Shown: positions 3,479 to 46,477 of the stretch, piece after piece
How the letters are laid out: the number at the start of each line of letters is the position of its first letter
How positions within the stretch are numbered: position 1 is the stretch's first letter
Assembly: GCA_963766795.1 (NCBI GenBank)
Contig: CAVYBN010000012.1
Span: forward strand, 220 to 64,219
Length of the DNA stretch: 64,000 nucleotides
Direction: 5' to 3'
Origin: Candidatus Parcubacteria bacterium
GTDB lineage: Bacteria; Patescibacteriota; Minisyncoccia; Phycocordibacterales; PALSA-1337
Made by a program: the position numbers and the translations under genes
The notes under the pieces: model-generated
What the model was told of the DNA's origin: nothing
Seen by the model: the letters and a program-made list of their open reading frames with translations, nothing else
Database searches by the model: none

Positions 3479-5293
3479 TCATTTGCCTGCCGCCTCCAAA
3501 TCCTTCTTGGCTTGCGCGATCTGCATGAGCTGGGCCGGATTGGTGGTGATGATCTGGTCCTCGGTATATGAAGCGCGGATCTGGATGGCCACGTGCTTCA
3601 GGCCCACGAAGAAGATGCCTTCGCCGACATCGGATTCGAGGAGCAGGTACTTCTCTTCGTCGGTCAGGTTGAAAGTCTGCTGGATGTGATCTATGACCGT
3701 CGGCGACTGCTTGAGGAGGATCTGCATCGAGGAGTTGGTCAGGATCGGCATGCCATATGGCGATTTCAGGAAATCGTCCACATCCTGCGTGATGGTGGCC
3801 AAGCCGAGGAAGTATTTGCGGCAGCGCTTGGCGATGCCGAACAGGAATGAAGCCGTGTCCTCGCTCTTCATCATCCACCAGGCCTCGTCCACGACCATCA
3901 GGCGCTTTTTCTTGGTCTTCCTTATGGTATTCCAGATGTAGTGCGTGACGATGTACATGGCCACCGGCTTGAGCTCGTCTTCCATGTCGCGGAGCGAGAA
4001 GACCACGAATTTGTTGTTGATGTCCACGTTGGAGGGGCGGTTGATGAAGCCGGCCCAAGTGCCTTTGGTGTATTTGCTCAAGCGCTGGACCAGCGAATCG
4101 GCGCCTTCCATTCCCGCCAGCACCAGCTCGAAATCGGACAAGAGCGGCGGCTCGACCTTGCGGAAATCTGACTCTGGCGTGATGTCCTTCAAGGCGTAAG
4201 TCTCGCTGATGGCGCGGTCGATGATGGCGTCTTCTTCCTGGGAGAGGCCGCCCAACATGATGCGGAATAGTCCGACCAGGTTGATGATGTTCGAGCGCAA
4301 GACGTCGGAGCCGGACTCGTCTTCGGTCGGGACCGGCAGGTCGAAGGGATTGATGTGGTGCTCGGAGTTGAGCGAGATATTGAAATATTTTCCGCCGGTG
4401 GCTTCGGACATGTACTCGTATTCCTTTTCCGGATCGATGACGATGACGTCCGTGTCGAACATCAGCGTGCGCAGGATCTCCAGCTTGGTGCAATAGGATT
4501 TGCCGGCGCCGGCCACCGCGAATGTGACCGAATTGTAATTCTCCAGTGAATAGCGGTCGAACAATACCAGCGAGGAATTGTGGCGGTTGATGCCGTAGAG
4601 GATGCCCTTGTCGGAAGTCAGGTCGAATGATACGAACGGGAAGGCGCTCGAGAGCGGCGATGAATTGAGCTTGGAATTGACTGCCAATTCGTCGTCGGCG
4701 ATAGGGATGGTGCTCTTGAAGCCCTGCTCCTGCTGGAACAGGGCCGGCTTGACATAGACCAGTTTGGACTCAAGGATGGATTTGACTTCGGATTCGAGCT
4801 TGTCGAGCTCGTTGTCGGAATCGGCGAATATGGTGATGTAGACGCCGACGTCGAAGAGGTGCTCCTGCGCCTGCATCAGCTGGTCGCGGAGCTGTTCCAG
4901 GTCCTGATAGGCGGTGTCGAGGCCCGGATCGCGGACCAAGCCCTTCTCTTCCCTGTGGGCGATCTGGCTCTGAACCTCGGCGACCTTCTTCTGGAAATGT
5001 CGCAGGATCTTGGCGGTCTCGACGGGATGGATGAAGATCGAGACGTTGAAGACCTTGTCGAGGTTGATGATCGGCGCGAACCAGCTCTCGTCCAAGAATC
5101 GCGGATATGAGATGACGAAGAGAGTGCGGCCGATCTTCTCGCCGAGGTTGATCTCCTTGGGGCTGACTTTGAGAGCCGACGGCGCGATGACGTCCTTCAA
5201 TTCCAGGACGCCGGCCTGATAGATCTCCTCGGGCAGGATGGAGACGATGGGGCTAGCTTCTTTCTTTCCAAATAATTTTGAGAAGATGGACAT
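3479..5293 (-). CDS. virB4: VirB4/TraE-type type IV secretion ATPase
   Basis: Walker A VAGAGKSY, Walker B-like RLMVVDEAWWMM, and an N-terminal DVIAPSA...GRTLFVISYPRFL pattern typical of Gram-positive VirB4-like ATPases. I prefer the ATG at 5293 (MSIFSK) to the track TTG at 5314. Confidence 0.85.
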   Translation of the reverse strand: MSIFSKLFGKKEASPIVSILPEEIYQAGVLELKDVIAPSALKVSPKEINLGEKIGRTLFVISYPRFLDESWFAPIINLDKVFNVSIFIHPVETAKILRHFQKKVAEVQSQIAHREEKGLVRDPGLDTAYQDLEQLRDQLMQAQEHLFDVGVYITIFADSDNELDKLESEVKSILESKLVYVKPALFQQEQGFKSTIPIADDELAVNSKLNSSPLSSAFPFVSFDLTSDKGILYGINRHNSSLVLFDRYSLENYNSVTFAVAGAGKSYCTKLEILRTLMFDTDVIVIDPEKEYEYMSEATGGKYFNISLNSEHHINPFDLPVPTEDESGSDVLRSNIINLVGLFRIMLGGLSQEEDAIIDRAISETYALKDITPESDFRKVEPPLLSDFELVLAGMEGADSLVQRLSKYTKGTWAGFINRPSNVDINNKFVVFSLRDMEDELKPVAMYIVTHYIWNTIRKTKKKRLMVVDEAWWMMKSEDTASFLFGIAKRCRKYFLGLATITQDVDDFLKSPYGMPILTNSSMQILLKQSPTVIDHIQQTFNLTDEEKYLLLESDVGEGIFFVGLKHVAIQIRASYTEDQIITTNPAQLMQIAQAKKDLEAAGK

Positions 5294-5325
5294 GATAATG
5301 AATTCAAAAGGCAAAATTATCTATC

Positions 5326-5413
5326 TTGTCACCCCCGCGGAAGCGGGGGTCCAGTGTATTACCACTGGCATTGTCGGTGAAACCCTGGATTCCCGCTTTC
5401 GCGGGAATGACAA
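5326..5413 (+). repeat. 88-bp two-hairpin MITE-like element, copy 1 (TTGTCA...TGACAA termini)
   Basis: TTGTCA-CCCCCGC-GGAA-GCGGGGG-TCCAGTGT...CCCTGG-ATTCCCGC-TTTC-GCGGGAAT-GACAA. The two ends are imperfect inverted repeats of each other. It lies in the leader of virB4. Confidence 0.85.
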
Positions 5414-5428: not shown

Positions 5429-6073
5429 TCATGTTATTTGAATCGGTTTCTCAGTTTCCCCCGGATTAAACAGCTTATAAAACAATTCTACCACCTCCTC
5501 CGTGCCCAGCTCGGCGGTCCTGATGCCGCAGCGCACGAGTCCCTGTTCGACCACGGCCACGCGCTGTTCCAATTGGCTCCGATGCTCCTGGAAGAGCTCG
5601 TCGGGAGTAGCCTTGGCACCGTCAGTCCCCTTCTTCCCGCCGGGCAGAGCAGCGGCCAGGCGGCTCTTCGAGCCGGCAGCGATCGCCGGATCATAGGGTA
5701 TGATCACGAAGAAGCTCTTGGACATGATGTTGGTGGATTCCACGAAAGTCTTGATGAAGTCTATGTATTCACGGACTTGGATCTTCATGAGCTCGATCGT
5801 CTGTTCCTTGTAGCGGTCTTCCAGAAGGGCGATGTAAGGCCGGATGTCGAGCTTCTTGGACTGCATGAATATCTGGATGGAGAAATCTAGCGAGTTCAGG
5901 AAGTTCTGGAATTGCATCAGGATGGCACCCTGCTCGTCTGCCGACTTAAGCGCGAAGTTGAGCGAAGTCGCCAAGACGATGGAGCGCATGCCGCCGCTCT
6001 TCAGTATGACCACGCCGTCGCGGATCTCCTGGATGGGAACGAAGTTCTGGGTTGTTTGCTGTTTAGTAGCCAT
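5429..6073 (-). CDS. hypothetical protein of the T4SS-like cluster; N-terminal region resembles the pre-ATPase domain of Firmicutes VirB4-like proteins, no NTP-binding motif
   Basis: ATG at 6073 (MATKQQTTQNFVPIQEIRDGVVILKSGG...SLNFALKS..EQ). The 40 extra residues in the track ORF (SFPRKRESRV...WIPVFTGMT) are read-through of MITE copy 2. The functional call rests on by-eye pattern only. Confidence 0.55.
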   Translation of the reverse strand: MATKQQTTQNFVPIQEIRDGVVILKSGGMRSIVLATSLNFALKSADEQGAILMQFQNFLNSLDFSIQIFMQSKKLDIRPYIALLEDRYKEQTIELMKIQVREYIDFIKTFVESTNIMSKSFFVIIPYDPAIAAGSKSRLAAALPGGKKGTDGAKATPDELFQEHRSQLEQRVAVVEQGLVRCGIRTAELGTEEVVELFYKLFNPGETEKPIQIT

Positions 6074-6102
6074 TGGATGTAATTCAAAAGGCAAAATTAT
6101 CC

Positions 6103-6190
6103 TTGTCATCCCCGTGAAAACGGGGATCCAGTGTATTACCACTGGCGTTGTCGGTGAAACCCTGGATTCCCGCTTTCGCGGGAATGACAA
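6103..6190 (+). repeat. 88-bp two-hairpin MITE-like element, copy 2
   Basis: Same architecture and length as copy 1. The left hairpin is ATCCCCG-TGAAAA-CGGGGAT, with compensatory changes relative to copy 1. The flanking 20 bp AATTCAAAAGGCAAAATTAT (6081-6100) is also shared with 5301-5320. Confidence 0.85.
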
Positions 6191-6247
6191 CATTTTGACT
6201 TTTAACTTTCAATTTTGACTTTTGCATTTTGACTTTTAACTTTTGAC

Positions 6248-13578: not shown

Positions 13579-14057
13579 AAAACTTCTTATCCATCATAGC
13601 TATAATACTTATGACTTTCATTTCCTTGCCTTTTCGCGCTCTCGCATTCGGCGCGACATTCGACGGCGGCGAGCTTCAAGGCATGGACACCATGTGCACA
13701 TGTTCCGGCGGTGAGACCATCGATATCCAAAGCTATGTCGACAATAGTCAGCATACATATCTGTATGAGCTTGGAGCATCGACGCTGTACGCGAATTACG
13801 ATATCATGTCATCGAACGGTTATTTCTTAGCCACACTTACGCCGATGGCGATGTGTTTGGTATACGAAGGCGAGGATTGCGATCAGGAGGGCCAGACTCC
13901 GGAAGGAATGTTCAATTTGGTCGGCACTTCCTTCAACGACAGTAGGAACAGCCTCATGGCGCTTCTAGAGAAGTTTCCGATGGTTTCTAATATCACCGAG
14001 GCTTTCTCAAAGTCGATTTCTCTGTCTTCTTGGAATCGTTCAGATTCTCAGATTTGA
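13575..14057 (+). CDS. small secreted Cys-containing hypothetical protein
   Basis: 160-aa ORF with an ATGA overlap to the upstream gene and signal peptide MKNFLSIIAIILMTFISLPFRALA. Confidence 0.45.
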   Translation: MKNFLSIIAIILMTFISLPFRALAFGATFDGGELQGMDTMCTCSGGETIDIQSYVDNSQHTYLYELGASTLYANYDIMSSNGYFLATLTPMAMCLVYEGEDCDQEGQTPEGMFNLVGTSFNDSRNSLMALLEKFPMVSNITEAFSKSISLSSWNRSDSQI

Positions 14058-15089
14058 AACGATCTCAAACCACTTCCCCAGTTCAACCTCCTCCGCCCGC
14101 GCTTTTTCATTTAAATTCAAGTCAAACCAGACCTTTTCAAGTCTCTCCTTGGCGGTTATTCCATTGGCGATTCCTTTGGTAATCGCTTCTTTGCCAACGA
14201 CTGCCTCCAGATTCCTGATCAAAAGCTTCCTCTTATGAGCGAATCCGGCTTTGACGATCTCAAAAAACCTAGGTATTTCAACGCCTTTCTCCTTAAATCG
14301 TTTATCGGAAATGTTTTCGATTGAAAGTATGGCCGAATCAACCGTTGGCGGCGGCGTGAATGCTCCGCGCGGAACGCGGGCGATGATCTTCGGCGTGCCA
14401 AAAGCTTTGACGGAAATGGAGAGGATGCTCTCTTTGCCAGACAGAGGTCGGACCTCCGCCCGGATGACCCCGAGGTCCGACCTCTGTGTTCTAGTACCGA
14501 TGATCCGTTCAGCGACTTCTTTTTGTACCAATAGAACCATTCTATTTGGCCGTGGTTCATGCTCAAGAAATGATTCGAGAATGGCGCCGGTGATGTAGTA
14601 AGGGATATTGGAGACGATCGCGTACGAGGAATTGGAGATTGAAAATTGAAAAGCCTTGTCATTCCCGTGAAAACGGGAATCCAGTGTATCACTGCTTTCG
14701 ATTTCAGTAGTCTGACCCTGGATCCCCGCTTGCGCGGGGATGACAACAGGATTCGCGGGGATGACAGGCGGTTTACAATCGTTGGCAATCAATCGGCTGA
14801 TTGAATACGATTCTCGATCGAGAATGTCGCCTTCGACGAGCGTTAATCGGCTAGCGTTCAATTCACTGGCGAATCTTTCTTTTAATAGTTCGATCGCCCG
14901 CGAATCTTTTTCGATCGCTATGACATTCGCGCCAGCTTCAAGCAGAGCTTTCGTCAAAACGCCCGTGCCCGGCCCTATTTCAAGGACATTTTCACCGATT
15001 TGAATGTGCGCGCTCTCGATGATCTGCTTCAAGACCACCGGTGAATTCAGGAAATGCTGTCCGAGGGATTTTTTTGGTTTTAAGTTCAT
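14040..15089 (-). CDS. rsmA: 16S rRNA (adenine1518/1519-N6)-dimethyltransferase RsmA/KsgA carrying two in-frame repeat insertions
   Basis: LGQHFLNSPVVLKQIIE...VLEIGPGTGVLTKALLE...SNIPYYITG. I prefer the ATG at 15089 (MNLKPKK). The protein is longer than usual because of the inserts at 14441-14487 and 14631-14768. Confidence 0.85.
   Translation of the reverse strand: MNLKPKKSLGQHFLNSPVVLKQIIESAHIQIGENVLEIGPGTGVLTKALLEAGANVIAIEKDSRAIELLKERFASELNASRLTLVEGDILDRESYSISRLIANDCKPPVIPANPVVIPAQAGIQGQTTEIESSDTLDSRFHGNDKAFQFSISNSSYAIVSNIPYYITGAILESFLEHEPRPNRMVLLVQKEVAERIIGTRTQRSDLGVIRAEVRPLSGKESILSISVKAFGTPKIIARVPRGAFTPPPTVDSAILSIENISDKRFKEKGVEIPRFFEIVKAGFAHKRKLLIRNLEAVVGKEAITKGIANGITAKERLEKVWFDLNLNEKARAEEVELGKWFEIVSNLRI
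14441..14487. repeat. perfect 16-bp-stem hairpin element (ACAGAGGTCGGACCTC / GAGGTCCGACCTCTGT) inside rsmA
   Basis: Arms at 14441-14456 and 14472-14487 are exact reverse complements. The GAGGTC(C/G)GACCTC core recurs at 28269-28285 (intergenic) and 53496-53510 (inside rsmE). Confidence 0.8.
14656..14768 (+). repeat. MITE-like element copy 3 with a partially duplicated right hairpin, inside the rsmA reading frame
   Basis: TTGTCA-ATTCCCG-TGAAAA-CGGGAAT-CCAGTGT...CCCTGGATCCCCGCTTGCGCGGGGATGACAA plus an extra CAGGATTCGCGGGGATGACAGG. It is translated in frame as PVIPANPVVIPAQAGIQ...LDSRFHGNDK. Confidence 0.85.
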
Positions 15090-15115
15090 AATCGCTTGCG
15101 TTATTGAGGAATCCT

Positions 15116-16208
15116 TTACGCGGTCGGAGCAGTCAGCCATTCCCAAAGAGGGACAAACTGCACTGTCACGCCATCCTTTTTGACTTCGCGCTTCTCATCC
15201 CACGAGAGCACGGTGAGCTTATCCACTTTCAATTCGCCGCCGGCTTCGGATAAGGCTTTTATCTCTCTTCGCTCGACATCCGGAGATATCGGATCGTAGC
15301 AGACCTGAATTAGTTCCGTGACTTCTATTCCTTGCCTCACGACAAAATCAACCTCGCGGTCATTGCGGGTTTTGTAGTAAAATAGCTCTTTATTCGGCTT
15401 AGCTCCGCGTTTGACGAGCTCGGTAAAAACGAGATTTTCCATGAGCTTGCCTTTGTCGGGAGAATGCTGGACTCGCTTTCGCGCTTATGAAGCCGTTATC
15501 GACGGCATAGACTTTTCTCGGCGACTTTATGCGTTGTATCGATTTCGGCGAATATCGCAGCAGAGAAAAGACAAGATATGCCTCCTCCAGATATTTTATG
15601 TACTTCTCTATCGTGCTGGTGCTTTTCAGATTCAAAGCCTCGAGCAGTTTGCGTATCGTATACAAGTTGGCGAAGTTATTGACCATATATGCCGCCAGAT
15701 TCACTATCTGCGTCGAGAATCTGACCTCATGCCTTTTGACCACATCCTTGAAGATGAGCGAATCGAACAAAACCTCTAGATAATCCTTGGGGTCGACATT
15801 ATTGACTGCCACCTCCGGAAATCCGCCGTTCACTAGGTAATTTCCCATCAGATTCAACAGCTCGCCTCGTTGCTCCGGCAATGCCGCATACTCGGGATTT
15901 ATTTGAAACTTTTTTGCTTTGAGAAATTCATTGAAATCAAACGGCAGTATCTCTATGGGCATGTGTCTCCCAGTCAGATGCGTGGCGAGCTCCATTGAGA
16001 GAAGCTGGGCGTTCGATCCGGTGAGCACCAGATTGTAGCCTCCCCTGTGTAATCGGTTGGCGAAAAGCTCCCAGCCGTGGAGATTCTGTATCTCATCAAA
16101 GAGAATGGTCTTTACCGGGCCGTATGCCGCGTGCAATTCTTTCATGAGCTCATTCGTTTCTATGCCGCCAGTGCTCGAAAGGACTTCATCGTCAAAATTG
16201 AAATACAT
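15116..16208 (-). pseudogene. AAA-ATPase (DUF4143-type) remnant: N-terminally truncated and frameshifted
   Basis: ORFs 15399..16208 and 15116..15442 together match the middle and C-terminal architecture of AAA14/DUF4143 ATPases (FDEIQ...GSNAQLL...ENLVFTELVKRG). No Walker A region lies upstream. The frames rejoin if one C is removed from the CCC at 15457-15459 (GGG on the plus strand). Confidence 0.65.
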
Positions 16209-16329
16209 GAACGGCCGATCCGATCTCTTTTAGTTTGTTATTTTGCATAGTAACTTACTCATACTGGTCAGAATATGTCTTTTTTGACCAGTACGACTAG
16301 TATACTGGTCACAATGGGAATAAGTCAAG

Positions 16330-18383
16330 TCAAAAATCTATGAACACCGCCTTCGCCCCGGTCGGTTTTTGCGGCGCGGATTCCTCGATGAGCGACGCGT
16401 CTATGTCATCTATGAATTCTGACATGGTGTTCACGCGCTCTGTTCCGTAGACCGTGCGGATGAGAGCGAATGGCTTAAATGGACTTTCTTGCGCGCGCGG
16501 GTCAGAGCGACGTAGAACAATCGACGCTCCTCCTCTGCCTCGGCCTGGCTCTGCCCTTCCTCGTCCATGTGCTTGAATGGAAAAAGGTCCTGCTCGAGGC
16601 CGGCGATGAAGACATGGTCGAATTCCAGGCCTTTCGAAGCATGGACGGTCATCAATTTTACGGCGTCATGATTTTCTTTAAGTTCGTCCTGGTCGGTTGC
16701 CAGTGCCGCGTTTTCCAGAAATGACTCTATCCCTTCTTCAGGTTTCAAATGATCATATTGCGCGGCCACGGTCACCAATTCGTGAATGTTCAAAAGCCGT
16801 TCCTCATCCTCGCTGTCGCCTTCTCGCAAGACGCGCTCCATTCCAGTCTCTTGAATGACGAATTTCACTGATTCAGAAGGCTTTTTCTCGAGGATTTCCT
16901 TCTTAATGTCGGCCAATAATTGTCGGAAGCTGGCGATCTTAGTCTTCATGCCGTCCGGCAATTCACTTTCAGAACCAGCCAGGACTTTTGCCACGGTCAC
17001 CTTGCCGATTCCCCGTGGTGGGACATTGATTATGCGCGCAATATCGGCGGCGCCAGTACCGGTGAAGTTGGAACGATTAAGATTGGCGTCGGTGGTAGCA
17101 CCCTGGATTCCCGCCTTCGCGGGAATGACAAGCGACCCTTTGTTTGGTTGCGAATCAGTATTTGAATTAAGTGCCGCTCTGATATACGACAAAACATCTT
17201 TGACCTCCTTCCTTTCGAAGAACTTCACGCCGATCAATTGGTACGGGATATTCTTCTTGATGAAAGCCTCCTCCAAAGCGCGCGATTGGAAATTCGCGCG
17301 ATAGAGGACGGCGACCTCCTTGGCCGGAGTGCCGCCGTCGATGAGATCGCGAGAGATGTCGGCAATGGCGCGCGCTTCGTCGTTCTCGTTGTACGAAGGC
17401 AGAAGCGCGATCTTTTCGCCGGTCGGGTTGTCGGTGCACAAGGTCTTCTTCTTGCGCATGGAATTCTTCTCGATGACGTCGTTGGCCGCGGCCAGGATCG
17501 TTTTGGTTGAGCGGTAGTTGGTCTCAAGCGTGATCACTGCCGCCTCCGGATAATCCTTCTCGAAATGCAAGATATTCTCGATGGTGGCGCCGCGCCAACT
17601 GTAGATATTCTGGTCGGCGTCGCCGACCACGCAAATATTACGATCAGTCCCTGCTAAGTGATTGGCTATCTCGTACTGGATCCGATTTGTATCTTGATAT
17701 TCATCGATGTGAATGTATTTCCAAATGGAATTGTAATGTCCGCGGACATCAGCGATCTTTAACAGTTCGGCCGTCTTGACCAACAAGTCGTCGAAATCCA
17801 AAGCGCCGTCTTTCTTAAGGATCGCGTCATATTTCTCCCAGACATCGGCGATCATCTCTTCCATGAAATCCTTGGCGGCGTCTTTGAAGGCCAGTGCTTG
17901 GACCCCATCGCCTTTAGCTCGCGAGATCTTATTCAAGAATACTCCCGGCTCGTATTTCTTTGGATCAATGTTGACTTGAACCATCGCTTCTTTAACGGCT
18001 CGACGCGAATCGGAGCGGTCATAGATGTTGAAATGTCGGTTCAGGCCGAGCAGGCGCGCGTTCTCGCGGATGATATGGACGCCGAGCGCGTGGAAAGTGC
18101 TCACGAACGGCCGCTCACCCATGGAGACCGGCCGATTCAAGGCCTTGTCTTCCGCGAGCAGCTTGATGACCCGCTCGCGCATCTCGCTTGCCGCCTTATT
18201 CGTGAAAGTTACGGCCAGAATCGAATGCGGCGCGACGCCTTTCTGGACCAAGTTAAGGATCCGGTGGGCGATGACGCGCGTCTTGCCGGAGCCGGCTCCG
18301 GCCACGACGAGGACAGGACCGTCGGTCGTCTCCACCGCGCGCTGTTGCTCGGGATTCAGGTTCATGTCATCGAATACTAGCAT
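16330..18383 (-). CDS. pcrA: ATP-dependent DNA helicase PcrA/UvrD family with in-frame repeat insertion; 3' end frameshifted as assembled
   Basis: LNPEQQRAVETTDGPVLVVAGAGSGKT, DEYQDTN and VHASKGLEF motifs. The C-terminal FALIRTVYGTERVNTMSEFIDDI lies in another frame that ends at 16330. The shift is near 16468-16478. Confidence 0.85.
17098..17131 (+). repeat. half copy (right hairpin) of the MITE-like element inside pcrA
   Basis: CCCTGGATTCCCGCCTTCGCGGGAATGACAA is translated in frame as SLVIPAKAGIQG within a longer helicase insert. Confidence 0.8.
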
Positions 18384-18567
18384 TCTTTTGGCCTTCCACA
18401 GGCTATGCACAGATGCGATTGACAGCTTTTGTACGATTGCTAGGCTTAATGCATAGCTAAACCTATGTGTGAATAAATGGCTCGATAGAGCCTTATTTAT
18501 TAGGTTAGAGATTTCAATGTGAGGGTTGGAGAGGCCACGAAAGTCTTGTCAGACGGCCAGTTCCATT

Positions 18568-28232: not shown

Positions 28233-28460
28233 TTTGCGCCCCCAGATTTCAGAATTGAATGGATCTCACTGAGGTCGGACCTCAGCAAAACATTCAAACC
28301 TGCCTATCCGCGGGCGAGATTACTTTATTAAAAAAACTCTAGCAGAATCACTGTAGCAAAAAGCGCCGGGGAATGCCACACACAGGTTCGACCTGTGTTA
28401 ATCGGGTCATTTCCACCAAATGACTCGATTAGCTTAGAGCCAGCCTAATTATCCGTAGGA

Positions 28461-30757
28461 TTATTTGCTATATAGCTCCTTCTGAAATCCAAAAAAGGTC
28501 GAGCGGATCATATCGACTTCGCCTAGAACATTCACCGCGTTAGCAATGGCATGATACTTTAGATTCAAGAGGACCGGGAGTTTTTCTTCATCAAGCTCCT
28601 CGACTCCTTTTTCTTCGTACTTTGACAATACAAAATCCAAAAACTCCTTTTGCTTCTCGTCCAATCCTTCGAATATCTTCTTCTTTGCGTGCTCAACTCT
28701 TTGCACTCTGGAGATCGGCGGCGTCAAGAAAGAAACATACGATAATACGTCGAACAGGTCGCTTTGTTCCGCATCGATCATTTTTTGAAGCATCTCCAGT
28801 TCATCTTTGCCGTATCCCATAGCCGATATCTTTTCAAGGAACGCTTTTCGAGTTATCGGATCAGACCATATCTTCCGTAGCTCTTCCTCGCTCTTGAAGA
28901 ATTCCGGCATCGCCCCGAACATATTATCCATGAATTCTTGGATCGAGACCGGTTTGCCGTCAGCGCCCCAGAAAGAAGTGGCGATCATGTGCTGGATCTC
29001 GCGCTCTTTTCCATCGCGCAGCTTTATCTTCAATGTCTGTTTTGTAGGCACTGGCTCTGGCGGAACAGGCGGCTCTCTCTGTTCTTTAGGCTCCTTTGGT
29101 TCTCTCGGTTCTTTCTCTTTTATATCCTCTATCGGTTCGCCGTCCCATTCCGGATCGGAGAAATGATAATACGCGTTTACGAAATCATATATGGTGAAGT
29201 ATTCCTTGCCGTCGAAAAGCCGGGTGCCGCGTCCGATGATCTGCTTGAACTCGATCATTGAATTGACTGGGCGCATCAGCACGATATTGCGTATGTTCCT
29301 GGCATCGACGCCGGTGGAAAGCTTCTGTGATGTGGTCAAAACCGTCGGGATCGACTTTTCATTATCCTGAAACTCCCGCAAGATATTGTTCTCCTCGAGC
29401 GCCGTCATTGGCCGTTACGCGCGCGCAGTAATTCGGGTCTTTGCTTTTCTTATATTGATTGACCAGATCGCGCACTAGGAGCGCGTGAGTCTGGGTCGCG
29501 CAGAAGATTATCGTCTTCTCGTTCTGATCGATGTCATCCAAGACGAATCTGACTCGCTTCGACTTCTCTAGCCACGATCTCGATAGTCCGGTTAAATTCA
29601 GGCTCCCTGTAGATCTTTCCTTGCTCAACCTCACCTTCGATGATCTGGTCGTCCGAAACATACATGTAATCATCGAGAGTAGTCTGTATGCGCTTGATTT
29701 TGAATGGCGTCAAGAATCCGTCGTTGATGCCCTCTTTGAGAGAATAGACATATACCGGCTCGCCAAAATATTTATATGTATCGACATTATCCTTGCGTTT
29801 CGGAGTAGCGGTAAGGCCAAGCTGTACTGCCGGTGAGAAATATTCCAGGATTCCGCGCCAGTTGCTTTCGTCATTGGCACCGCCGCGATGGCATTCATCG
29901 ATGATGATCAAGTCAAAGAAATCCGGCTCGTATTCTCCGAAATATTCCGCGCCGTCCGGTCCGCTCATGAATGTCTGGAAGATGGTGAAGAAGACGCTTC
30001 CACCCATGGGAACGCCTCCTTTCTTTCGAATGTCGAGAGGATTTACGCGCACTTTGGCGTCGCTCGGAAAGATCGAGAAATCATTGCCGAACGCTTGGTC
30101 GGCAAGAATATTCCTATCGGCCAAAAACAGGATCCTCGGTCTGCGCGTGCCATCGCGCTTCAAATTCCAACGAGTTTGAAATAATTTCCAGGAAATCTGC
30201 GCCGCCACGGCCGTCTTGCCGGTTCCGGTAGCCATAGTGAGCAATATTCGCGACTTTTCTTCGGCGATAGCGTCGAGGACTTTGTTAATCGCCAATTCCT
30301 GATAATATCGCTTGCCATGCTCGCCCTCTATTGGAATAGCGGTGAATTTTTCTTTCCATTCGTTTTGATCCGAATATGTCTTATCCCACAATTCATCCGG
30401 TGTCGGGATTTTTGCCACTACCCCTTCTTTACCTGACTTCATGGAAACCTGGTAGATTTCTTTGCCATTCGTAGAGTAAGTGTAATCGATATCTAATTTT
30501 TTCGCGTACGATTTCGCTTGCGCCGCTCCTTCAGTCGCCGACAACTCCGCTTGCTTGGCTTCGATGACGGCGATCTTGCGGTTCTTGTAGACCAGGACAT
30601 AGTCGGCGATCTCCGGCTTGCTTCGCTTCCCGCCGACTTGGATCTTGCCTTCAGTGATGCGTAACTCCCGAAGGATTTTTGAATCCTCGGCCTCTCCCCA
30701 CCCGCTTGCCTTGAGCATCGGGTCTATGTACTCGGCTCGCGTTTCCGCCTCGTTCAT
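28461..30757 (-). pseudogene. hsdR: type I restriction enzyme R subunit (HsdR), split into three ORFs by two frameshifts as assembled
   Basis: N-terminal MNEAETRAEYIDPMLKASGW nuclease domain, helicase motifs MATGTGKT and DECHRG, TATP, TSQKLSTGVDARNI and QIIGRGTR, plus a C-terminal EcoEI_R_C-like tail. The frame changes near 29545-29580 and 29362-29408. Confidence 0.85.
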
Positions 30758-31728: not shown

Positions 31729-32909
31729 TTATAACTCCCCAACAAAAGCCCTCTTCAGCACCGACTTTTTCAGCTCCTCCAGATCCGCGATCTTCCGCTC
31801 GTATATATTTTCCAGATTTTTCGTCTCCGCCGCCAGCGCATCCAGTTTTTTGACGATGGTTTTTTGGACAGTAAGTGATTTTGGATAACGAAAAAGAATT
31901 TGTTTTACCGCACCACCGTTAAACTGAGGCTGAGCAGAACCTGCAGATAATTGTCGAACTTGGTCCCAATAGTGCTTAGATTTAGAAAAATACCAGTACA
32001 ACTTGCTCAAAAGGTTTTTTCTAAACTTCATTCTAATCAAATACGAAGCAAATATTGCTTTTTCATTGCTTTCAAAAAAAAGTACATTTCCAGCAGAAGC
32101 ACCCGTTCGTGCCATTAATAAATCTCCGTTGCCCATAAATATTTGCTTGCACCGTTAAAAGTTTTCACATACATCTTATTTTCTTGTGTAAGTAGGCCAT
32201 TTTTATCAGTGTCAGTAATTCTTATGAATCTGTAGTCACCTTTGCTTTTAGCCTTTTCTGTGTATCCATACTCAACTTCACAAACTTCTCCAAGTTTCTT
32301 CTCCTCCCAATTCTTCCCTTGCTTTGCAAAAACACTTTGCAGATATGCTTCAAAAAGCTCTTTAGAATTCTGCAGATTCTTCTCTGCATTTTCCTTGGCT
32401 TTTACGACTTTTTCAAAGACATTATCCAAGATTTTTACAATACGGTGCTGGTCGGGAAGAGGTGGAAGTGGGATTTCGATTTCTCTTAATTTTGTCCCTG
32501 AAAGCTCTTTGAATGTTGTACCACTACCCAGACTGTTTAAAAGTTTAACTGAGTCTTTAAGAAAGTAATACAGATATTTAGTGTCGAGCTGTCTATTCGG
32601 TATCAAACCTCTACATCCCTGATTTGTTGAGATTCGTTTTGTATTTATAGCAAGATGACCAATAGGGGCTCGGGTAGACAAGATGATTGAGTTGGGCGGA
32701 ATGATTTTTGCGGATGATTCTTCTAAACCTGCCTCTGTGATTTTTCGATCTGTTTCTTCAACAAATATTCCTTCAAGTTTTCCCATGTCTTTTGGCGTAA
32801 TCCATAAAATATCTCCATCCCAGTATCTCAAAATACCAGTTTTAGGAGTTCCTCCGTTTACAATCTCACATACATCACCAAGTTTTTTTGTTTGCCAGTT
32901 AGTTATCAT
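31729..32909 (-). pseudogene. hsdS: type I R-M specificity subunit (HsdS), frameshifted as assembled
   Basis: Two target-recognition halves: WQTKKLGDVCEIVNGGTP... and WEEKKLGEVCEVEYGYT...GDLLMARTGASAGN..., with conserved coiled-coil spacers. ORFs 32115..32909 and 31729..32136 rejoin with one extra base near 32118-32130. Confidence 0.8.
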
Positions 32910-33892: not shown

Positions 33893-34687
33893 TCAGGTAT
33901 TTTGAGTATATAGATATTGCATATATGAAAACCAATCTCGTGCATGCACTTTCAATCTTTCCAAATCTTTAGGAGTTATGGGATTATTGTGGGCGATAAC
34001 ATTTCTTGTAGGGCCTAGTTCTTCAAGTTTACCGATTAAATTCTTTTGTGCCCCCTTTTTAAACAGTTTGCAAAATTCTTTGTCAAAAACACGAATAATT
34101 GATACTAGCTCCAAATAATCCGTATAGTAGATTTCATGGGCGCCTCTCTTTGAATGGTACCAGTTATCAGAGTCGCTTGCTTTTCTGGAGTCAACTTTAC
34201 GTACCGTTTCTTTTAATGATTTTTTATTCCTAACCTCCAGCCACCAGTTACCGCCGTAAACGCCCAGAAGTATTTTTGTGATGAAAGTGCGTATAGAATT
34301 TTCAAGAACAAACATAATTGAATATCCTTCTGAAGGAATATTTTTGTATACTGAGCCTCCTAAAAATGGATCAGAAAAATCATTTTTAGGAATCTGTACC
34401 GGATGAATGACTTTCCTGCTGGTTTTTGATTCGCCGATAATTTTATCTTTAGATTGACTATTTAATTCTAAACTCAGTTGAGCTTGTTGATTAGGATTAA
34501 GCCCGCGCATAAAAGTGGCCGTGCCGATTTTATACTTATCTGCAGTAATGATCAAAGCAACCTCAGGTGAAATCTTTTTCCTAAAAGCGAAAGCACTGAT
34601 ACTTTTCACAACTAACTTTGAAGATTTGCCTGTTTTGTCAGCAATTTTTTTTACCAATTTCTTGCTGTAGATCAAAGGTCTGCCCAT
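33893..34687 (-). CDS. HEPN-domain protein (Swt1/Abi-like) candidate RNase
   Basis: The C-terminal half shows ENSIRTFI...GGNWW...YTDYLELVSIIRVF...LEELGPTRNVIAHNN. The R-x4-H motif and spacing resemble Swt1-like and Abi HEPN families as I recall them. Confidence 0.6.
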   Translation of the reverse strand: MGRPLIYSKKLVKKIADKTGKSSKLVVKSISAFAFRKKISPEVALIITADKYKIGTATFMRGLNPNQQAQLSLELNSQSKDKIIGESKTSRKVIHPVQIPKNDFSDPFLGGSVYKNIPSEGYSIMFVLENSIRTFITKILLGVYGGNWWLEVRNKKSLKETVRKVDSRKASDSDNWYHSKRGAHEIYYTDYLELVSIIRVFDKEFCKLFKKGAQKNLIGKLEELGPTRNVIAHNNPITPKDLERLKVHARDWFSYMQYLYTQNT

Positions 34688-35473: not shown

Positions 35474-36925
35474 TTAGACAAGATCTTTAATTTTACTCAA
35501 CATCTTTTCGCTCTCCCCATCCAACCTCCTCATCTCCTCCAAAATCTCCTTGGGTTCGCGCAAAACAACTTCCCCGCCTTTGTTCGGATTCTTCACTGAC
35601 AAATCGAAGGTTGTCTGATCCACGTTGGAAACGTCGATGCTCCAAGAATTTTCGGAATCCGCTTTGGTCTTTTGGAGCTTCACGAAATCGGCCAGATCGG
35701 CTTCGCTCAATGGATTGGTCTTGCCGAGGTTGCGCTTGAGATTCAATTGATAGAACCAGACCTTCTTTGTTGGACTGCCCTTTTCAAAAAACAATACGAC
35801 AGTTTTGACGCCAGCGCCGGCAAATACGCCGCCAGGAAGGTCGAGGACGGTATGCAGATTACAATTCTCAAGGAGCAACTTGCGCAAACTGACCGAGGCA
35901 TTGTCGGTATTCGAGAGAAAGGTATTCTTGATGACGATGCCCGCGCGACCGCCGGTTTTGAGGATCTTTATGAAGTGTTGCAAAAAGAGGAACGCCGTTT
36001 CGCCGGTCTTTATGGGGAAATTCTGCTGGATTTCGCGTCCGATACCGGCGCCGAAAGGCGGATTGGCCAGGATGATATCGTAACGGTCCTTTTCCTGGAT
36101 GTCGTTTATGTTCTGCGCCAGCGTGTTCATGTGCCTGATGTTCGGAGCCTCGATGCCGTGCAGGATCATGTTCATGATGCCGATGATGTATGCCAGAGAT
36201 TTAATCTCTTTCCCGTAGAATGTCTTGTTTTGAAGAGTCTCCATCTGGGCCGAAGACAGCTTGGCTTGGTTTTGAGTGAGAAAATTGTACGATTCAACCA
36301 AAAATCCGGCCGAGCCGCAGGCACCGTCATATATAGTCTCACTGATCTTCGGCGCCACTACCTTCACGATGGTCCTGATGAGCGGCCTGGGAGTGTAATA
36401 TTCCCCGCCGTTCCTGCCGGCATTGCCCATGTTCTTGATCTTGGCTTCGTATAGATGCGAAAGCTCGTGCTTCTCTTCGTACAGCCGGAAGTGCATGCCG
36501 TCCACGATGTTCAAGATCTCGCGCAGTTTATATCCGCTGGAGATCTTATTTTTCAGCTCGCTGAATATCTCTCCTATTTTATATTCGATAGTATCCGGCT
36601 CTTCGGCCTTGAATTTCTTAAGATATGGGAACAGTTTCTGATTCACGAAGTCATTCAGGTCGTCGCCGTCGAGAGCTTTATGATGGTCTATCTTACCGTC
36701 GATTGTCTTCGGCGCTGCCCAAGAATTCCACCGGTATTGCTGGTCCAGAATGTAATCATACTTCTTGCCGGCCAAGGCCGCCTCTGTCTTCTTTGTCTCA
36801 TCCAAATCATCGAGATACTTCAAAAACAAAATCCATGAAGTCTGTTCAACGTAGTCCAGCTCTGTAGCCGAGCCAGAGTCGGTGTGGAGTATCTGGTCTA
36901 TGTTTTTGAATGATTGTTCGAACAT
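35474..36925 (-). CDS. hsdM: type I R-M N6-adenine DNA methyltransferase subunit (HsdM)
   Basis: HsdM N-terminal domain (ELDYVEQTSWILFLKYLDD), EYYTPRPL, DGACGSAGFL and ILANPPFG motifs. I prefer the ATG at 36925 (MFEQSFKNID). The track start at 37006 would overlap the NYN gene. Confidence 0.9.
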   Translation of the reverse strand: MFEQSFKNIDQILHTDSGSATELDYVEQTSWILFLKYLDDLDETKKTEAALAGKKYDYILDQQYRWNSWAAPKTIDGKIDHHKALDGDDLNDFVNQKLFPYLKKFKAEEPDTIEYKIGEIFSELKNKISSGYKLREILNIVDGMHFRLYEEKHELSHLYEAKIKNMGNAGRNGGEYYTPRPLIRTIVKVVAPKISETIYDGACGSAGFLVESYNFLTQNQAKLSSAQMETLQNKTFYGKEIKSLAYIIGIMNMILHGIEAPNIRHMNTLAQNINDIQEKDRYDIILANPPFGAGIGREIQQNFPIKTGETAFLFLQHFIKILKTGGRAGIVIKNTFLSNTDNASVSLRKLLLENCNLHTVLDLPGGVFAGAGVKTVVLFFEKGSPTKKVWFYQLNLKRNLGKTNPLSEADLADFVKLQKTKADSENSWSIDVSNVDQTTFDLSVKNPNKGGEVVLREPKEILEEMRRLDGESEKMLSKIKDLV

Positions 36926-36935
36926 AAAAACTATC

Positions 36936-37454
36936 CTACCTCTTCCCCGCCCGCAATAGATATTTATTCGACGCCTCGTCCAAGTCCATGAAATGGTCGG
37001 TGGCATCGATCAGCTTGGCAGAGGTGGATTTGCCGAAGGAGACCACTTCCACCTGGCAACCTTGATTCATCTGCAGGTATTCCACCAACGGCACGAAGTC
37101 GCCGTCGCCGGTTATGAGAATGACCGCGTCGAGCTTCGGCGACAATTTGACCGCGTCGATCGCCAGCCCCACGTCCCAGTCCGCCTTCTTGGCACCCGAG
37201 CTGAAGATCTGCAGATCCTTGATCTTTGTCTCGATGCCCATCTTGACCAAGGCGTCGAAGAAGGCGCTCTCCTCGCCGGATTCCGTCTTGATGACGTACG
37301 CGATCGCGCGCACCAGCTTCCTGCCGTCGAGCGCGTCTTTGACGATTGCGCCGAAATTGACCTTCGAATGATAGAGATTCTTGCCGCTGTGATACAGATT
37401 CTGCGCGTCTATGAAGATGCCCACGCGCTGCTCCTTATGTTTGATGACTGCCAT
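36936..37454 (-). CDS. NYN/LabA-like domain protein (predicted RNase fold)
   Basis: RVGIFIDAQNLYHS...LVRAIAYV...DWDVGLAIDAV...DAVILITGDGDFVPLVEYL fits the NYN (LabA-like) pattern. Its stop lies 10 nt before the hsdM ATG. Confidence 0.75.
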   Translation of the reverse strand: MAVIKHKEQRVGIFIDAQNLYHSGKNLYHSKVNFGAIVKDALDGRKLVRAIAYVIKTESGEESAFFDALVKMGIETKIKDLQIFSSGAKKADWDVGLAIDAVKLSPKLDAVILITGDGDFVPLVEYLQMNQGCQVEVVSFGKSTSAKLIDATDHFMDLDEASNKYLLRAGKR

Positions 37455-37578: not shown

Positions 37579-37666
37579 TTGTCACCCCCGCGAAAGCGGG
37601 GGTCCAGTGTATTGCAACAGACATAATTGTTAATACACTGGATTCCCGCCTTCGCGGGAATGACAC
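37579..37666 (+). repeat. 88-bp MITE-like element, copy 5, nested inside a larger word-shuffled palindromic spacer (about 37500-37740)
   Basis: TTGTCACCCCCGCGAAAGCGGGGGTCCAGTGTATT...AATACACTGGATTCCCGCCTTCGCGGGAATGACAC, with a central CCAGTGTATT/AATACACTGG inverted repeat. The flanks carry TTAGAAATTAGGT / ACCTAATTTCTAA words in inverted orientation. Confidence 0.85.
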
Positions 37667-38110: not shown

Positions 38111-38736
38111 GCGGGCGATTTGGCTTGAATCCCGTTCCCGTTGTTTCCGACTTTAAGGTTTGTGCGAGCCCATTAGCCGTTTGCTTTGGCCACTACAGCC
38201 TCATGCAATCCGAGTCCCCTTTTAGGAGGAATGGGGATGTTTCCAATGGATGTACGACGGTATAGTCTCCTTTCAGCCACAATCGCAATGCTGCGGCAGA
38301 TTTCTTCTGGCGAATTTCGGGCGAGTCCATCATTCATTCATTTTCAATTAAACCCGGCATAACAATTTCTTGGATGCCGATCCCAATGGAAGTGGACTCG
38401 CGGGCCGGTGGCGGCGATCATTAGGTCAAATATTTGCCGCGCAGGCCGGGGCCGGAGGCGCCGACGAAGGGGGAATCTTGGCTCTTATTCTTCTGGCCAG
38501 CGAAGGCCACAATGATATTCGAATTCGGGGGGCTTTTGTTCATAATATATGCCTTTCTATCAAGCCGTTTGTTGTTTTAAGCTTGAGTAGTTGGGATGAC
38601 CTCCAAACCTGCGCACACGCGCGATTTTGGTGGAATCGTGATTCAAAGATCATCCCGAAAACATGCTAGCACGCTCGAATTATTTGTCAAGTACAAGAAA
38701 ATATTGCCTATTGCGAGGCTATGCTACAATAAAACC

Positions 38737-39663
38737 ATGTCGCACAATATCAAGGACTTGAAACAGCAATTCCTCGAATACACCGAGATCGAAAAAGGCC
38801 GATCGATCAAGACTGTCATCAATTATGATCATTATCTCACGCGATTCATAACCTTTTCAAAGGTCAAAAACTGTGAAGATATCACGGCTGACAGTATCCG
38901 TAATTATCGCCTGTGGCTCAACCGGCAATCTACTGGCCATGTGCGCAATGGTCCGGAGACTCTGAAGAAGAAGACACAAAACTATCATCTGATCGCTCTG
39001 CGCGCGTTCCTTAAGTACCTCGCCAAGCGCGGGATCAAATCATTATCGCCGGAGCATGTCGAGCTGGCCAAGGTCGGCGAACGGCATATCGATCTAATTT
39101 CAAGCGATGAATTGAAGCGTCTTTTCGATGCGACCAGAGGCGACGATCTCAAATCACTAAGAGATAGAGCCATTTTAGAGCTTTTATTTTCCACTGGCCT
39201 GCGCGTTTCAGAGCTATGCTCGCTGACGCGAGATACCGATTTCAATGCTGAAAGTTTTTCTATCCGCGGCAAGGGAGAGAAGATCCGCGTCGTCTTCATG
39301 TCCGACGAGGCCAGGAAGGCAGTGAAGAATTATCTGGCTAAGCGCGCGGATGTCGAGGACTCTCTGTTTGTCCGCGTTCCCGGCGTTGAAATGAAAGGTT
39401 GGCAGAAACAGCAGGCATTAACGACAAGATCAGTCGAACGCATCATCAAACATTACGCAATCAAAGCTGGCATATCCAAGAAAGTCACGCCGCACGTCAT
39501 TCGCCATTGTTTTGCCACTGACTTGCTCGGCAACGGCGCCGATTTAAGATCAGTCCAAATGCTTCTCGGCCACGCCAACATTTCCACGACTCAAATCTAT
39601 ACGCACGTCACCGACGCTGAACTCAAAAGAGTTCATAAGCAGTTTCATAATCGGAAAAGATGA
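38737..39663 (+). CDS. tyrosine recombinase, XerC/XerD family
   Basis: N-terminal SAM-like domain (FLEYTEIEKGRSIKTVINYDHYL) and a catalytic region with LLFSTGLRVSEL, HVIRHCFAT, LLGHANISTTQIYTH. I prefer the ATG at 38737. Confidence 0.85.
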   Translation: MSHNIKDLKQQFLEYTEIEKGRSIKTVINYDHYLTRFITFSKVKNCEDITADSIRNYRLWLNRQSTGHVRNGPETLKKKTQNYHLIALRAFLKYLAKRGIKSLSPEHVELAKVGERHIDLISSDELKRLFDATRGDDLKSLRDRAILELLFSTGLRVSELCSLTRDTDFNAESFSIRGKGEKIRVVFMSDEARKAVKNYLAKRADVEDSLFVRVPGVEMKGWQKQQALTTRSVERIIKHYAIKAGISKKVTPHVIRHCFATDLLGNGADLRSVQMLLGHANISTTQIYTHVTDAELKRVHKQFHNRKR

Positions 39664-39669: not shown

Positions 39670-39757
39670 TTGTCACCCCCGCGGAAGCGGGGGTCCAGTG
39701 TGATACCGCAAGTGTTATCTGCAATACCCTGGATTCCCGCTTTCGCGGGAATGACAA
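39670..39757 (+). repeat. 88-bp MITE-like element, copy 6
   Basis: TTGTCACCCCCGCGGAAGCGGGGGTCCAGTGTG...CCCTGGATTCCCGCTTTCGCGGGAATGACAA lies between the recombinase gene and xth. Confidence 0.85.
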
Positions 39758-45805: not shown

Positions 45806-46477
45806 TTATTTTACATCGCGCGCGGAAAGACGCTTGGCTTCGCTTATGAAGAACGATTGCCAATCTTTCTCGTCGATCTTCTTGATCATGGTCGGGTAGT
45901 CTTTCAACCCTCCGCATTTGACGAATTGGGCCGCCAATTGAAGGGGATCGATGTAGTGGTCGAATTTTATCTGGGCTTTCTCGACTAGTTCATCCATTGT
46001 CCAGTCTTTCTTTTCTTTCAAGATGCAATACAGATCGATGAAATCGCGCGAGCGCGGCTTTTGATATATGGTGAACGCTTTGTTCACGGCTATGTCGAGA
46101 AGACTGTCGACGGATAAAGCGCCGAATTTTTGTTTCAAATCTATCCTAGTAAAAGGGAAATACGTGAATTCCGTCTTGATGGAATCATTTTCCAGTTCAA
46201 GAAAGAACAGGTTCCGATTGAAGCTTTGTTCGTAAGAAACCTTCTTTATGCCGGCGGTCTTCTGAAGCTTTTTGAACAATGCAGAGATCGCTTGCGGGTC
46301 GAATTCATTTTCGGAAAAGAAATCCAGATCTTCCGACAGACGATGACGCAAATAAAATTCTGCCAGGGCGGTGCCGCCCGTCAGATAGAAACTATCGGTT
46401 ACGAGCTTTTCTTTGGCAAGGATGGAGAGCAGACCTTTTTGATTCCTTGAAAGGATTGACGGCATCGTTTTAAGCAA
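45806..46477 (-). CDS. nucleotidyltransferase, AbiEii/AbiGii (DUF1814) toxin family
   Basis: FYLTGGTALAEFYLRHRLSEDLDFF is the signature N-terminal NTase motif of this family. Confidence 0.75.
   Translation of the reverse strand: MLKTMPSILSRNQKGLLSILAKEKLVTDSFYLTGGTALAEFYLRHRLSEDLDFFSENEFDPQAISALFKKLQKTAGIKKVSYEQSFNRNLFFLELENDSIKTEFTYFPFTRIDLKQKFGALSVDSLLDIAVNKAFTIYQKPRSRDFIDLYCILKEKKDWTMDELVEKAQIKFDHYIDPLQLAAQFVKCGGLKDYPTMIKKIDEKDWQSFFISEAKRLSARDVK

Follow-up and report, generated by a model that had tools for sequence, protein, structure and literature searches.

Results

The rsmA/ksgA gene and its two inserts

The window analysed here is a stretch of 64,000 nt from the metagenome-assembled genome of Candidatus Parcubacteria bacterium (GCA_963766795.1, contig CAVYBN010000012.1, positions 220 to 64,219). 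Our subject is its rsmA/ksgA gene, which lies on the reverse strand at 14040..15089 and encodes 349 aa from a likely ATG at 15089, together with two palindromic repeats that are read within it: a hairpin element and a miniature inverted-repeat transposable element (MITE). The open reading frame (ORF) reaches upstream to a TTG at 15146, and the translation of 14040..15146 (-) contains no stop across either of the insert regions. A preliminary interpretation of this DNA (the sequence-only reading) had proposed that an otherwise canonical KsgA carries both elements in frame, and the peptides that it quoted were reproduced exactly.

The canonical identity of the host is supported by its motifs, its fold and its family score. 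The protein matches Pfam RrnaAD (9e-46) and passes the TIGR00755 (RsmA equivalog) cutoff with 196 bits against 171. The SAM motif (LEIGPGTG), the acidic motifs and N(L/I)PY are all present (motif residues 36, 59, 87 and 161). The AlphaFold model, with a core pLDDT >90, comprises a Rossmann-fold N-domain and a helical C-domain, and the top 39 Foldseek matches to it were all KsgA/Dim1 with target-normalised TM-scores of 0.71-0.86. From its sequence the protein is predicted to be the RsmA/KsgA dimethyltransferase of 16S rRNA A1518/A1519. Its closest relatives are labelled Taylorbacteria, Pacebacteria or Patescibacteria, and KsgA orthologs are usually 262-290 aa long. Against three orthologs dN/dS was 0.11-0.17, and the gene is under purifying selection. 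A second rsmA was not found among the 30 largest ORFs of the window, which were also searched for mobilising enzymes (see below).

The hairpin element occupies 14441..14487. Its 16-nt arms (14441-14456 and 14472-14487) are 100% complementary, as the sequence-only reading had stated, and enclose a 15-nt loop. The core 13-mers are GAGGTCGGACCTC (14444-14456) and GAGGTCCGACCTC (14472-14484), such that the element consists of the 13-nt palindrome GAGGTCSGACCTC and an inverted copy of it, and as RNA it has a predicted fold of -37.4 kcal/mol (z = -5.45). It encodes ..TQRSDLGVIRAEVRPLS... The idea that it belongs to a repeat family was correct, but this is not a classic MITE family, being defined by the inverted 13-nt palindromes with variable loops between them.

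The second insert contains a dRS3-like MITE of 91 nt at 14656..14746 (-), running TTGTCA...TGACAA and encoding VVIPAQAGIQGQTTEIESSDTLDSRFHGNDK. Its inverted arms of 41 nt are 76% complementary and either end itself folds as a hairpin, ATTCCCGTGAAAACGGGAAT at 14661-14680 and ATCCCCGCTTGCGCGGGGAT at 14722-14741. The right hairpin had been described as duplicated. The duplicate (14747..14768, -, encoding PVIPAN) is truncated and consists only of a 13-nt direct repeat of the terminal arm, CGCGGGGATGACA at 14754-14766 copying 14733-14745, and not of a second complete hairpin. The GAAAATTGAAAA word reported alongside the MITE is indeed there, but it belongs to a heptamer microsatellite adjoining the MITE (AATTGAA x3.3, 14630..14652, encoding ..FQFSISN..), and with 6 matches against 1.1 expected in the window its over-representation is marginal. 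Heptamer arrays of the AATTGAA/TTGAAAA type also occur at 2724-2749 and 43328-43415, the latter as an inverted pair between the tRNA genes at 43247-43319 and 43430-43500. Peptides translated from the KsgA inserts include RSDLGVIRAEVRPL and VIPAQAGIQ.

Position of the inserts in KsgA

An alignment with Bacillus subtilis KsgA (6ifs) shows the window protein to be longer in two places, by about 50 residues (106-155) between motif III and the NIPYY-bearing strand (NLPY in B. subtilis) and by 15 residues between AERI and GKES. The MITE and the microsatellite both lie in the former region, the variable connector between motif III (GDIL) and motif IV (NIPYY), which agrees with the earlier placement of the MITE ahead of NIPYY. 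The hairpin had been assigned to the C-terminal half, but it is not in the C-terminal domain. In a cryo-EM study of B. subtilis KsgA, residues R161 and K169 of loop12 were reported to touch h45 and h27, and loop12 was reported as a specificity determinant (bioRxiv 10.1101/2021.09.15.460497). Their counterparts in our alignment are R195 and K219 of the window protein, both invariant. Since R195 and K219 flank the hairpin peptide, the peptide is located inside loop12, in the N-terminal domain, and the insert enlarges this loop from about 7 residues to 23. The two loops that hold the inserts tolerate length variation, and that of the hairpin is an rRNA-contact loop and not an inert surface loop. 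In the AlphaFold model, insert residues 113-153 and 207-215 have pLDDT <50, with a hint of a small beta-hairpin pairing residues 199-201 with 213-215.

Filled and empty sites

We aligned 19 KsgA orthologs. P0002 (locus L001, 73% identity) carries both elements, its MITE being shorter but joined at the same right-hand junction as in the window, while P0003 (L002/L003, 67% identity) has the hairpin but no MITE. P0004 (L004, 63% identity) and 15 more distant orthologs are without both elements, making 16 of the 19. The connector is hypervariable and holds other simple repeats in L002 and L004. The same-site KsgA hairpin was found in three independent assemblies (an NCBI/ENA metagenome-assembled genome (MAG), JGI and Logan), and an assembly chimera is therefore excluded.

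The neighbouring UvrD/PcrA-type helicase gene (16431..18410) provides a further case. It carries in frame a half MITE, consisting of one dRS3-like end and the core, at 17050..17132 (-), which encodes SLVIPAKAGIQGATTDANLNRSNFTGTG and is read in the same frame as the copy in KsgA (..SLVIPAKAGIQ..). The half MITE is common to L002/L003, whereas L001, with a helicase about 90% identical, has a clean empty site. The L002 helicase copy also has a duplicated truncated MITE end, as in KsgA. Since orthologs of KsgA and of the helicase, and relatives of UvrA (see below), show empty sites, the inserts represent insertions and not ancestral sequence, and the in-frame insertion proposed by the sequence-only reading is upheld for both elements.

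Between the helicase gene and ksgA (15116-16430) lies a DUF4143/AAA_14 ATPase gene that is split into the overlapping ORFs 15116..15442 and 15399..16208, and which has no counterpart at the syntenic loci L001 and L002. Compared with its orthologs, the helicase of the window stops about 45 residues early (window 16431-16500), which suggests, as judged from the gene arrangement, that the DUF4143/AAA_14 insertion may have clipped the helicase 3' end.

The 13-mer hairpin family

In the window the hairpin word was matched 8 times, compared with 0.09 expected. Single 13-mers include GAGGTCCGACCTC at 53497..53509 (+), in frame (..SRSDLNE..) within an RsmE-like 16S rRNA methyltransferase gene (52886..53674), and GAGGTCGGACCTC at 28271..28283, which is intergenic between the PNPase gene and an hsdR fragment. 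Metagenomes were scanned for GAGGTCGGACCTC followed, after a spacer of 8-25 nt, by GAGGTCCGACCTC. The pair was present on at least 120 contigs, and the matches listed comprised 96 distinct contexts with unrelated flanks and with loops that varied in both length and sequence. Identical loops nevertheless recur across genes: AAGAATCTGAACCCA was common to at least four contexts, AAGGGAGCCC was shared by UvrA, a Cu-ATPase and other hosts, and the KsgA loop of L001 differs at only 1 of 15 positions from a TsaD loop (L143) of the same sample. Since the same loop recurs in different genes, it is likely that whole hairpin units are copied. The fetched loci, which were chosen for pairs, held 121 G..C pairs and 20 singles. 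The 13-mer was in clear excess, with 33 extra copies in 886 kb where 0.013 would be expected, at a density of about 1 per 16-27 kb.

Among the matches listed, 65% of the hairpins were in open frames of at least 200 codons, compared with 71% of random positions, and the genic hairpins were enriched for unit lengths that are a multiple of three (30 of 62). Nine of the ten spanning ORFs tested encode housekeeping proteins, namely AddA/UvrD, UvrA (twice), a Cu-ATPase, PNPase, LeuRS, the CCA-adding enzyme, RecJ and TsaD. The 13-mer is free of stops in all six frames and yields the peptides RSDL, EVGP/EVRP and GRTS/GPTS. One of the carriers, an AddA/UvrD-type helicase-nuclease (L198:1235-5296, -), has an intein (Intein_splicing domain) in addition to its in-frame 13-mer hairpin. 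Intergenic clusters also occur: at L208:2650-2830 and 6730-7000, three to four hairpin variants share the spacer motif ..GCAACGTTTC.., an arrangement resembling arrays of repetitive extragenic palindromes (REPs) and bacterial interspersed mosaic elements (BIMEs) or of neisserial intergenic mosaic elements (NIMEs).

Viral contigs scanned for three configurations of the 13-mer pair gave no match, leaving a phage origin without support. An Rfam scan of the whole window returned four tRNAs only, and hence neither the hairpin nor the MITE corresponds to a known RNA family.

Constraint on the hairpin stem

The KsgA orthologs that bear the hairpin differ with dS of 0.8-1.2, which is near saturation of synonymous divergence. 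Across the three orthologs on which the conservation and dN/dS figures are based, the arms were invariant at 32 of 32 nt and the loop varied at 3 of 15 positions, while gene-wide invariance in the same set was 69% of coding columns and 43% of third positions. At the gene-wide rate, invariant arms have a P of about 7e-6. The hairpin also holds the two longest invariant runs of ksgA.

UvrA served as a replicate that was not ascertained by DNA, since its 120 relatives (81-88% identity, Paceibacterota/Nomurabacteria) were collected by protein similarity. The hairpin site was empty in 54 of the 120, occupied by the intact peptide in 8 and by variant peptides in several others. In DNA, four of the intact-peptide relatives had exact 13-mers and variable loops. 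Two variants, AAGGTCGGACCTT/AAGGTCCGACCTT and AAGGGCAGACCTT/AAGGTCTGCCCTT, had arms that were still perfectly complementary. In the hairpin alignment 100% of cells were paired, although 4 of the 13 pairs had changed on both sides; every change was from Watson-Crick to Watson-Crick without wobble, and shifted registers were only 20-53% paired. Of the 29 bystander variants that the fetched loci contained, 11 were perfectly complementary, several retaining self-palindromic arms, compared with 0 of 66 variant sites with a partner in shuffled DNA.

Since the arms are invariant at dS ~1 and change by compensatory Watson-Crick substitutions, the stem, as judged from these alignments, is kept at the nucleic-acid level and not at the protein level. 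The Watson-Crick-only covariation and the symmetry of the four half-sites, in what is a small sample, speak more for recognition at the DNA level or arm-to-arm correction than for RNA folding.

The dRS3/NIME-like MITE family

The window contains 8 matches to the MITE end motif, where 0 would be expected. They make up five full copies and one half copy: three between genes, one in a gene leader and two within genes. With full copies of 88-91 nt and arms of 37-41 nt that are 76-84% complementary, the family is small, multicopy and bounded by terminal inverted repeats. The full copies outside ksgA, all on the minus strand, were found by motif match at 5326..5413 and 37579..37666 (both intergenic), at 39670..39757 (intergenic, 9 nt past a tyrosine recombinase gene) and at 6103..6190. 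The last of these is at the 5' end of ORF 5429..6193 and is leader or intergenic sequence, since the start of this ORF, an ATG at 6193 within the MITE, is probably a spurious N-terminal extension.

The MITE end ATTCCCGCGAAAGCGGGAAT matches ATTCCCN8GGGAAT, the consensus of dRS3, which is the 20-bp repeat of NIMEs (PMC1797815). Each full copy has ATTCCCGYGAARRCGGGAAT at one end, in agreement with the 20-bp inverted repeat ATTCCCNNNNNNNNGGGAAT. The exact 27-nt end was found at no fewer than 119 genome loci in many phyla. Carriers among the matches listed include cultured Neisseria, Sphingomonas, Massilia and Ramlibacter, as well as MAGs of Saccharibacteria, Paceibacteria and one Nanoarchaeota; within Neisseria it is present in N. 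lactamica and N. dentiae. In orthologous MITE copies, changes in the end hairpins are paired, for example CCCCGC/GCGGGG versus CCCAGC/GCTGGG.

Most copies are stop-free in four of the six frames. Since the two ends are inverted copies of each other, either orientation encodes the same two peptide types, and every genic copy reads as 'VIPAxAGIQ...LDSRFxGND' type. Among the matches listed, however, only 43 of 147 MITE ends were in open stretches of at least 200 codons, compared with 78% of random positions, which indicates that the MITE is mainly extragenic and its in-frame copies are exceptions. When 5.8 billion proteins were searched with a profile of the MITE-frame peptide, almost all matches were ORFs of 30-90 aa without Pfam domains, and the search therefore provided no census of in-frame insertions. 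MITE translation is the source of hundreds of short 'hypothetical proteins' in public databases.

No transposase that might represent a related autonomous insertion sequence (IS) was found among the 30 largest ORFs, the tyrosine recombinase (38596..39663) being the only candidate mobilising enzyme. Two MITE copies in the same orientation (37579-39757) bracket this gene and a 111-aa ORF, and one of them begins 9 nt beyond the recombinase stop codon. From this layout the region could be a composite unit, or could hint at an enzyme acting on dRS3-like ends. Another two copies (5326-6190) bracket an ORF at about 5429-6100 that has no Pfam match, beside a TraG-like P-loop ATPase gene (3479..5314). 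Elsewhere, the dRS3-like 27-mer is present within a 1752-nt open frame of the Nanoarchaeota MAG (L044:1508-1534) and twice in one 3411-nt open frame of a 36% GC genome (L113:1642-1769). On the basis of these open frames, they may be further in-frame cases outside Patescibacteria.

Other features of the window

A type I restriction-modification locus extends over 28461-37006, with hsdS at 32115..32909, a HEPN protein gene at 33893..34687 and hsdM at 35474..37006; hsdR is seemingly split into 28461..29408 (EcoEI_R_C) and 29534..30757 (ResIII). Two neighbouring genes encode AbiEii-type toxins (45806..46477 and 47292..48095). Together, the AbiEii toxins, the restriction-modification locus and the TraG-like ATPase suggest that the window is rich in defence and mobile functions. 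An inverted repeat at 3340-3462, with 23-nt arms that are 96% complementary and 77 nt apart, is unrelated to the MITE and hairpin families.

Discussion

Origin and maintenance of the inserts

We consider it likely that a working rsmA/ksgA gene has been colonised in two length-tolerant loops by two unrelated families of non-coding palindromic repeats, both of which are predicted to be translated. On this view the repeats are selfish, non-autonomous passengers that permissive loops tolerate. A MITE-like unit of about 90 nt with dRS3-type ends (ATTCCC-N8-GGGAAT) would have landed in the GDIL-NIPYY connector and would later have been altered by duplication of its end and by the neighbouring microsatellite. 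A hairpin of 41-47 nt, made of two inverted copies of GAGGTCSGACCTC, would have inserted in loop12. Read-through is predicted because the 13-mer is stop-free in six frames and four of the six MITE frames are open. With an essential gene as host, purifying selection would then leave only frame-preserving insertions in permissive loops, such that read-through may be a by-product of stop-free composition and selection against frame-breaking insertions. The stem is most likely kept up because the element family needs it, together with its half-sites, either in order to be copied or through arm-to-arm correction of an extruded hairpin.

For the hairpin family we put forward a broader proposal, for which we judge the case to be evenly balanced. 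The 13-mer inverted pair with its 8-25 nt loop would constitute an undescribed, ultra-small, REP-like family of Paceibacterota/Parcubacteria that enters essential genes, within their coding sequence, nearly as readily as it enters intergenic DNA. The four GAGGTC half-sites of the pair would be kept by concerted, strictly Watson-Crick compensatory evolution, and in KsgA it would remodel the rRNA-recognition loop12. If true, this implies either dedicated copying or correction machinery that recognises the hairpin or its half-sites, or a cellular function, in bacteria of the Candidate Phyla Radiation (CPR).

Several observations weigh against colonisation as we have described it. Neither a target-site duplication nor a clean border was seen for either element, at the 96 hairpin contexts or at the five full MITE copies of the window, and these MITE copies had no shared flank. 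A transposase, a REP-associated tyrosine transposase (RAYT) or an IS110-type gene was not found among the 30 largest window ORFs, and mobility of the elements is therefore deduced from their distribution only. The KsgA MITEs of the window and of L001 have only the right junction in common, which, on comparison of the two sequences, would be compatible with one ancestral insertion or with two events. By analogy with B. subtilis KsgA, where loop12 touches h45 and h27, the enzyme may be affected by the hairpin insert. Furthermore, the KsgA conservation statistics rest on three orthologs only, and 18 of the 29 bystander variants carry 1-2 arm mismatches, so that the hairpins decay too and maintenance is not absolute.

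Two of the alternatives take the conserved stem as their starting point. The hairpin might be a host-beneficial cis element within coding sequence, conserved because it regulates its carrier genes. It would act through mRNA structure, by determining RNase III processing or stability or by pausing translation for co-translational folding, or else through DNA structure. The very stable stem (-37.4 kcal/mol, z -5.45), the invariance of the arms at dS ~1, the preservation of pairing by compensatory changes and the bias of hosts towards nucleic-acid housekeeping genes are all consistent with such a role. We nevertheless give it a small share of the probability, since the hairpin also forms intergenic clusters and is spread over unrelated genes, with a ratio of coding to non-coding copies that is nearly random, about half of the close UvrA relatives are without it and the loops are unconstrained; Watson-Crick covariation without G-U pairs and arms that tend to stay self-palindromic also suit DNA or protein recognition better than RNA folding. 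In the other alternative, the 13-mer is a protein-recognition word, either uptake-signal-like or a site for a dimeric DNA-binding protein or recombinase, held exact by molecular drive and not by transposition, with inverted pairs as the preferred arrangement. Conservation of the exact 13-mer in diverged hosts with unrelated flanks and loops, the single 13-mers of the window and the symmetry of the four half-sites in the variants could be explained in this way, and there is an analogy with the inverted pairs of the Neisseria DNA uptake sequence (DUS) and with dRS3 as a proposed recombinase target (in part PMC1797815). It is an unlikely explanation, given that most copies are paired (the 121 pairs and 20 singles on loci chosen for pairs) and that whole units recur with their loop in different genes, which points to unit copying. 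The density is also low at about 1 per 16-27 kb, whereas known uptake sequences occur at roughly 1 per kb.

The remaining alternatives concern the protein and the assembly. It is quite improbable that the inserted peptides have been exapted as functional parts of KsgA, for example as an enlarged arginine-rich loop12 suited to an unusual CPR 16S rRNA or 30S assembly. The hairpin peptide does lie between the equivalents of h45-contacting R161 and K169, it is kept in three orthologs, and AlphaFold2 suggests the small beta-hairpin of residues 199-201 and 213-215. However, model confidence is <50 in both inserts, and conservation is at the nucleotide level, including synonymous sites, and not specifically of amino acids. 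In addition, the hairpin DNA encodes unrelated peptides in other frames of other genes, and the 16 other aligned orthologs, including the next-closest P0004 (63% identity), are without it. That the inserts are assembly chimeras, or that the gene is decaying, was named by the sequence-only reading as what would undo its proposal, and it is a natural concern for repeats prone to mis-assembly in a metagenome-assembled contig. It is effectively refuted by the same-site hairpin in three independent assemblies (NCBI/ENA MAG, JGI and Logan), the intact frame, the dN/dS of 0.11-0.17, the complete set of motifs and the TIGR00755 score above the equivalog cutoff, and no second rsmA was found among the 30 largest window ORFs. 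Intein, intron and translational bypass were likewise rejected: the elements are far too small for an intein or intron, the frame is continuous and no RNA family matched.

Colonisation of ksgA by the two repeat families extends the occurrence of 'selfish DNA inside protein genes' from intracellular bacteria of the Rickettsia type to the CPR, whose genomes are small and whose essential genes are not expected to harbour such passengers. Conservation of the hairpin stems exceeds that of the catalytic motifs in their host genes. The family thus offers a tractable handle on whatever machinery copies or protects it, as well as a natural experiment in the tolerance of protein loops, here the rRNA-contact loop of KsgA. 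The identical 27-mer in many phyla means that the dRS3-type hairpin is not specific to Neisseria, and this bears on its proposed role as a recombinase target. In practical terms, these repeats yield hundreds of spurious 'hypothetical proteins' and length variation in CPR phylogenomic marker genes.

Comparison with known systems

Palindromic elements that are read in frame in protein genes are known from Rickettsia as the Rickettsia palindromic elements (RPEs) (Ogata et al. 2000, as summarised in PMC10969869), and the parallel drawn by the sequence-only reading is apt as an analogy. RPEs resemble the elements reported here in being palindromic and non-autonomous, in lying in frame in unrelated housekeeping genes with a fold-compatible extra peptide and in having intergenic copies as well. 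In-frame palindromic repeats with the host protein retained are likewise found here in KsgA, the helicase and the nine housekeeping hosts of the hairpin. RPEs are Rickettsia elements of about 100-150 bp, in defined families with a conserved peptide. The Patescibacteria elements are set apart by size and architecture, being either dRS3-like units of about 90 nt or hairpins of 34-51 bp in which only the 13-nt arms are conserved. Small non-autonomous open-frame repeats fused to host genes also include Coxiella QMITE1, intragenic ERIC (enterobacterial repetitive intergenic consensus), BOX and the Anabaena MITEs (PMC10969869, PMC5896051). These are other families in other hosts, and none has been reported with stems that are invariant across orthologs at saturated synonymous divergence.

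The MITE resembles NIMEs (PMC1797815) in its layout of hairpin, short core and hairpin, and its end fits the dRS3 consensus. NIMEs, however, have been described as Neisseria-specific intergenic arrays in which dRS3 flanks RS cores (PMC1797815), whereas the window unit is solitary, has a CCCCC/TCCCC variant as its second end, is hosted by a CPR bacterium and has two copies inside genes. The 13-mer hairpin is similar in form to REPs, REPINs (REP doublets forming hairpins) and BIMEs, as it too is a short (about 35-50 nt), highly repeated palindrome with inverted doublets, intergenic clusters (L208) and lineage-specific stem variants. It differs in that REPs are extragenic by definition, whereas 65% of the 13-mer hairpins are in long ORFs against 71% of random positions. 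Moreover, the hairpin has no conserved head of the GTAG type and each of its arms is itself a palindrome. REPs are mobilised by RAYTs, and no RAYT (IS200/IS605-like Y1 transposase) was found among the 30 window ORFs scanned. DUS and uptake signal sequences (USS) occur about once per kb, on both strands, in genes and as inverted-pair terminators, unlike the 13-mer, which is rare (about 1 per 16-27 kb) and mostly paired.

Mobile hairpins and GC clusters of mitochondria can occur within coding regions. They are comparable to our elements as tiny hairpin repeats of compact genomes, but are organellar, unrelated in sequence and of other stem composition. The repetitive hairpin-forming elements of sponge mitochondria are an example, described from intergenic regions (PMC2800124).

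Neither the 13-mer, nor its peptide signatures, nor MITEs or palindromes of Patescibacteria, Parcubacteria or CPR led to anything relevant in the searchable literature, from which most subscription journals are excluded, and to this extent the view that such elements were undescribed for the lineage is supported. In-frame fusion of palindromic repeats or MITEs to genes is already a known phenomenon, as RPEs, QMITE1, intragenic ERIC and BOX and the Anabaena MITEs demonstrate (PMC10969869). What appears to be new is that in-frame palindromic repeats occur in Patescibacteria, that the MITE is of the dRS3/NIME type, with an end that is identical across many bacteria, and, above all, that there is a family of 13-mer inverted-pair hairpins that is near-random with respect to coding sequence and whose stems undergo compensatory evolution.

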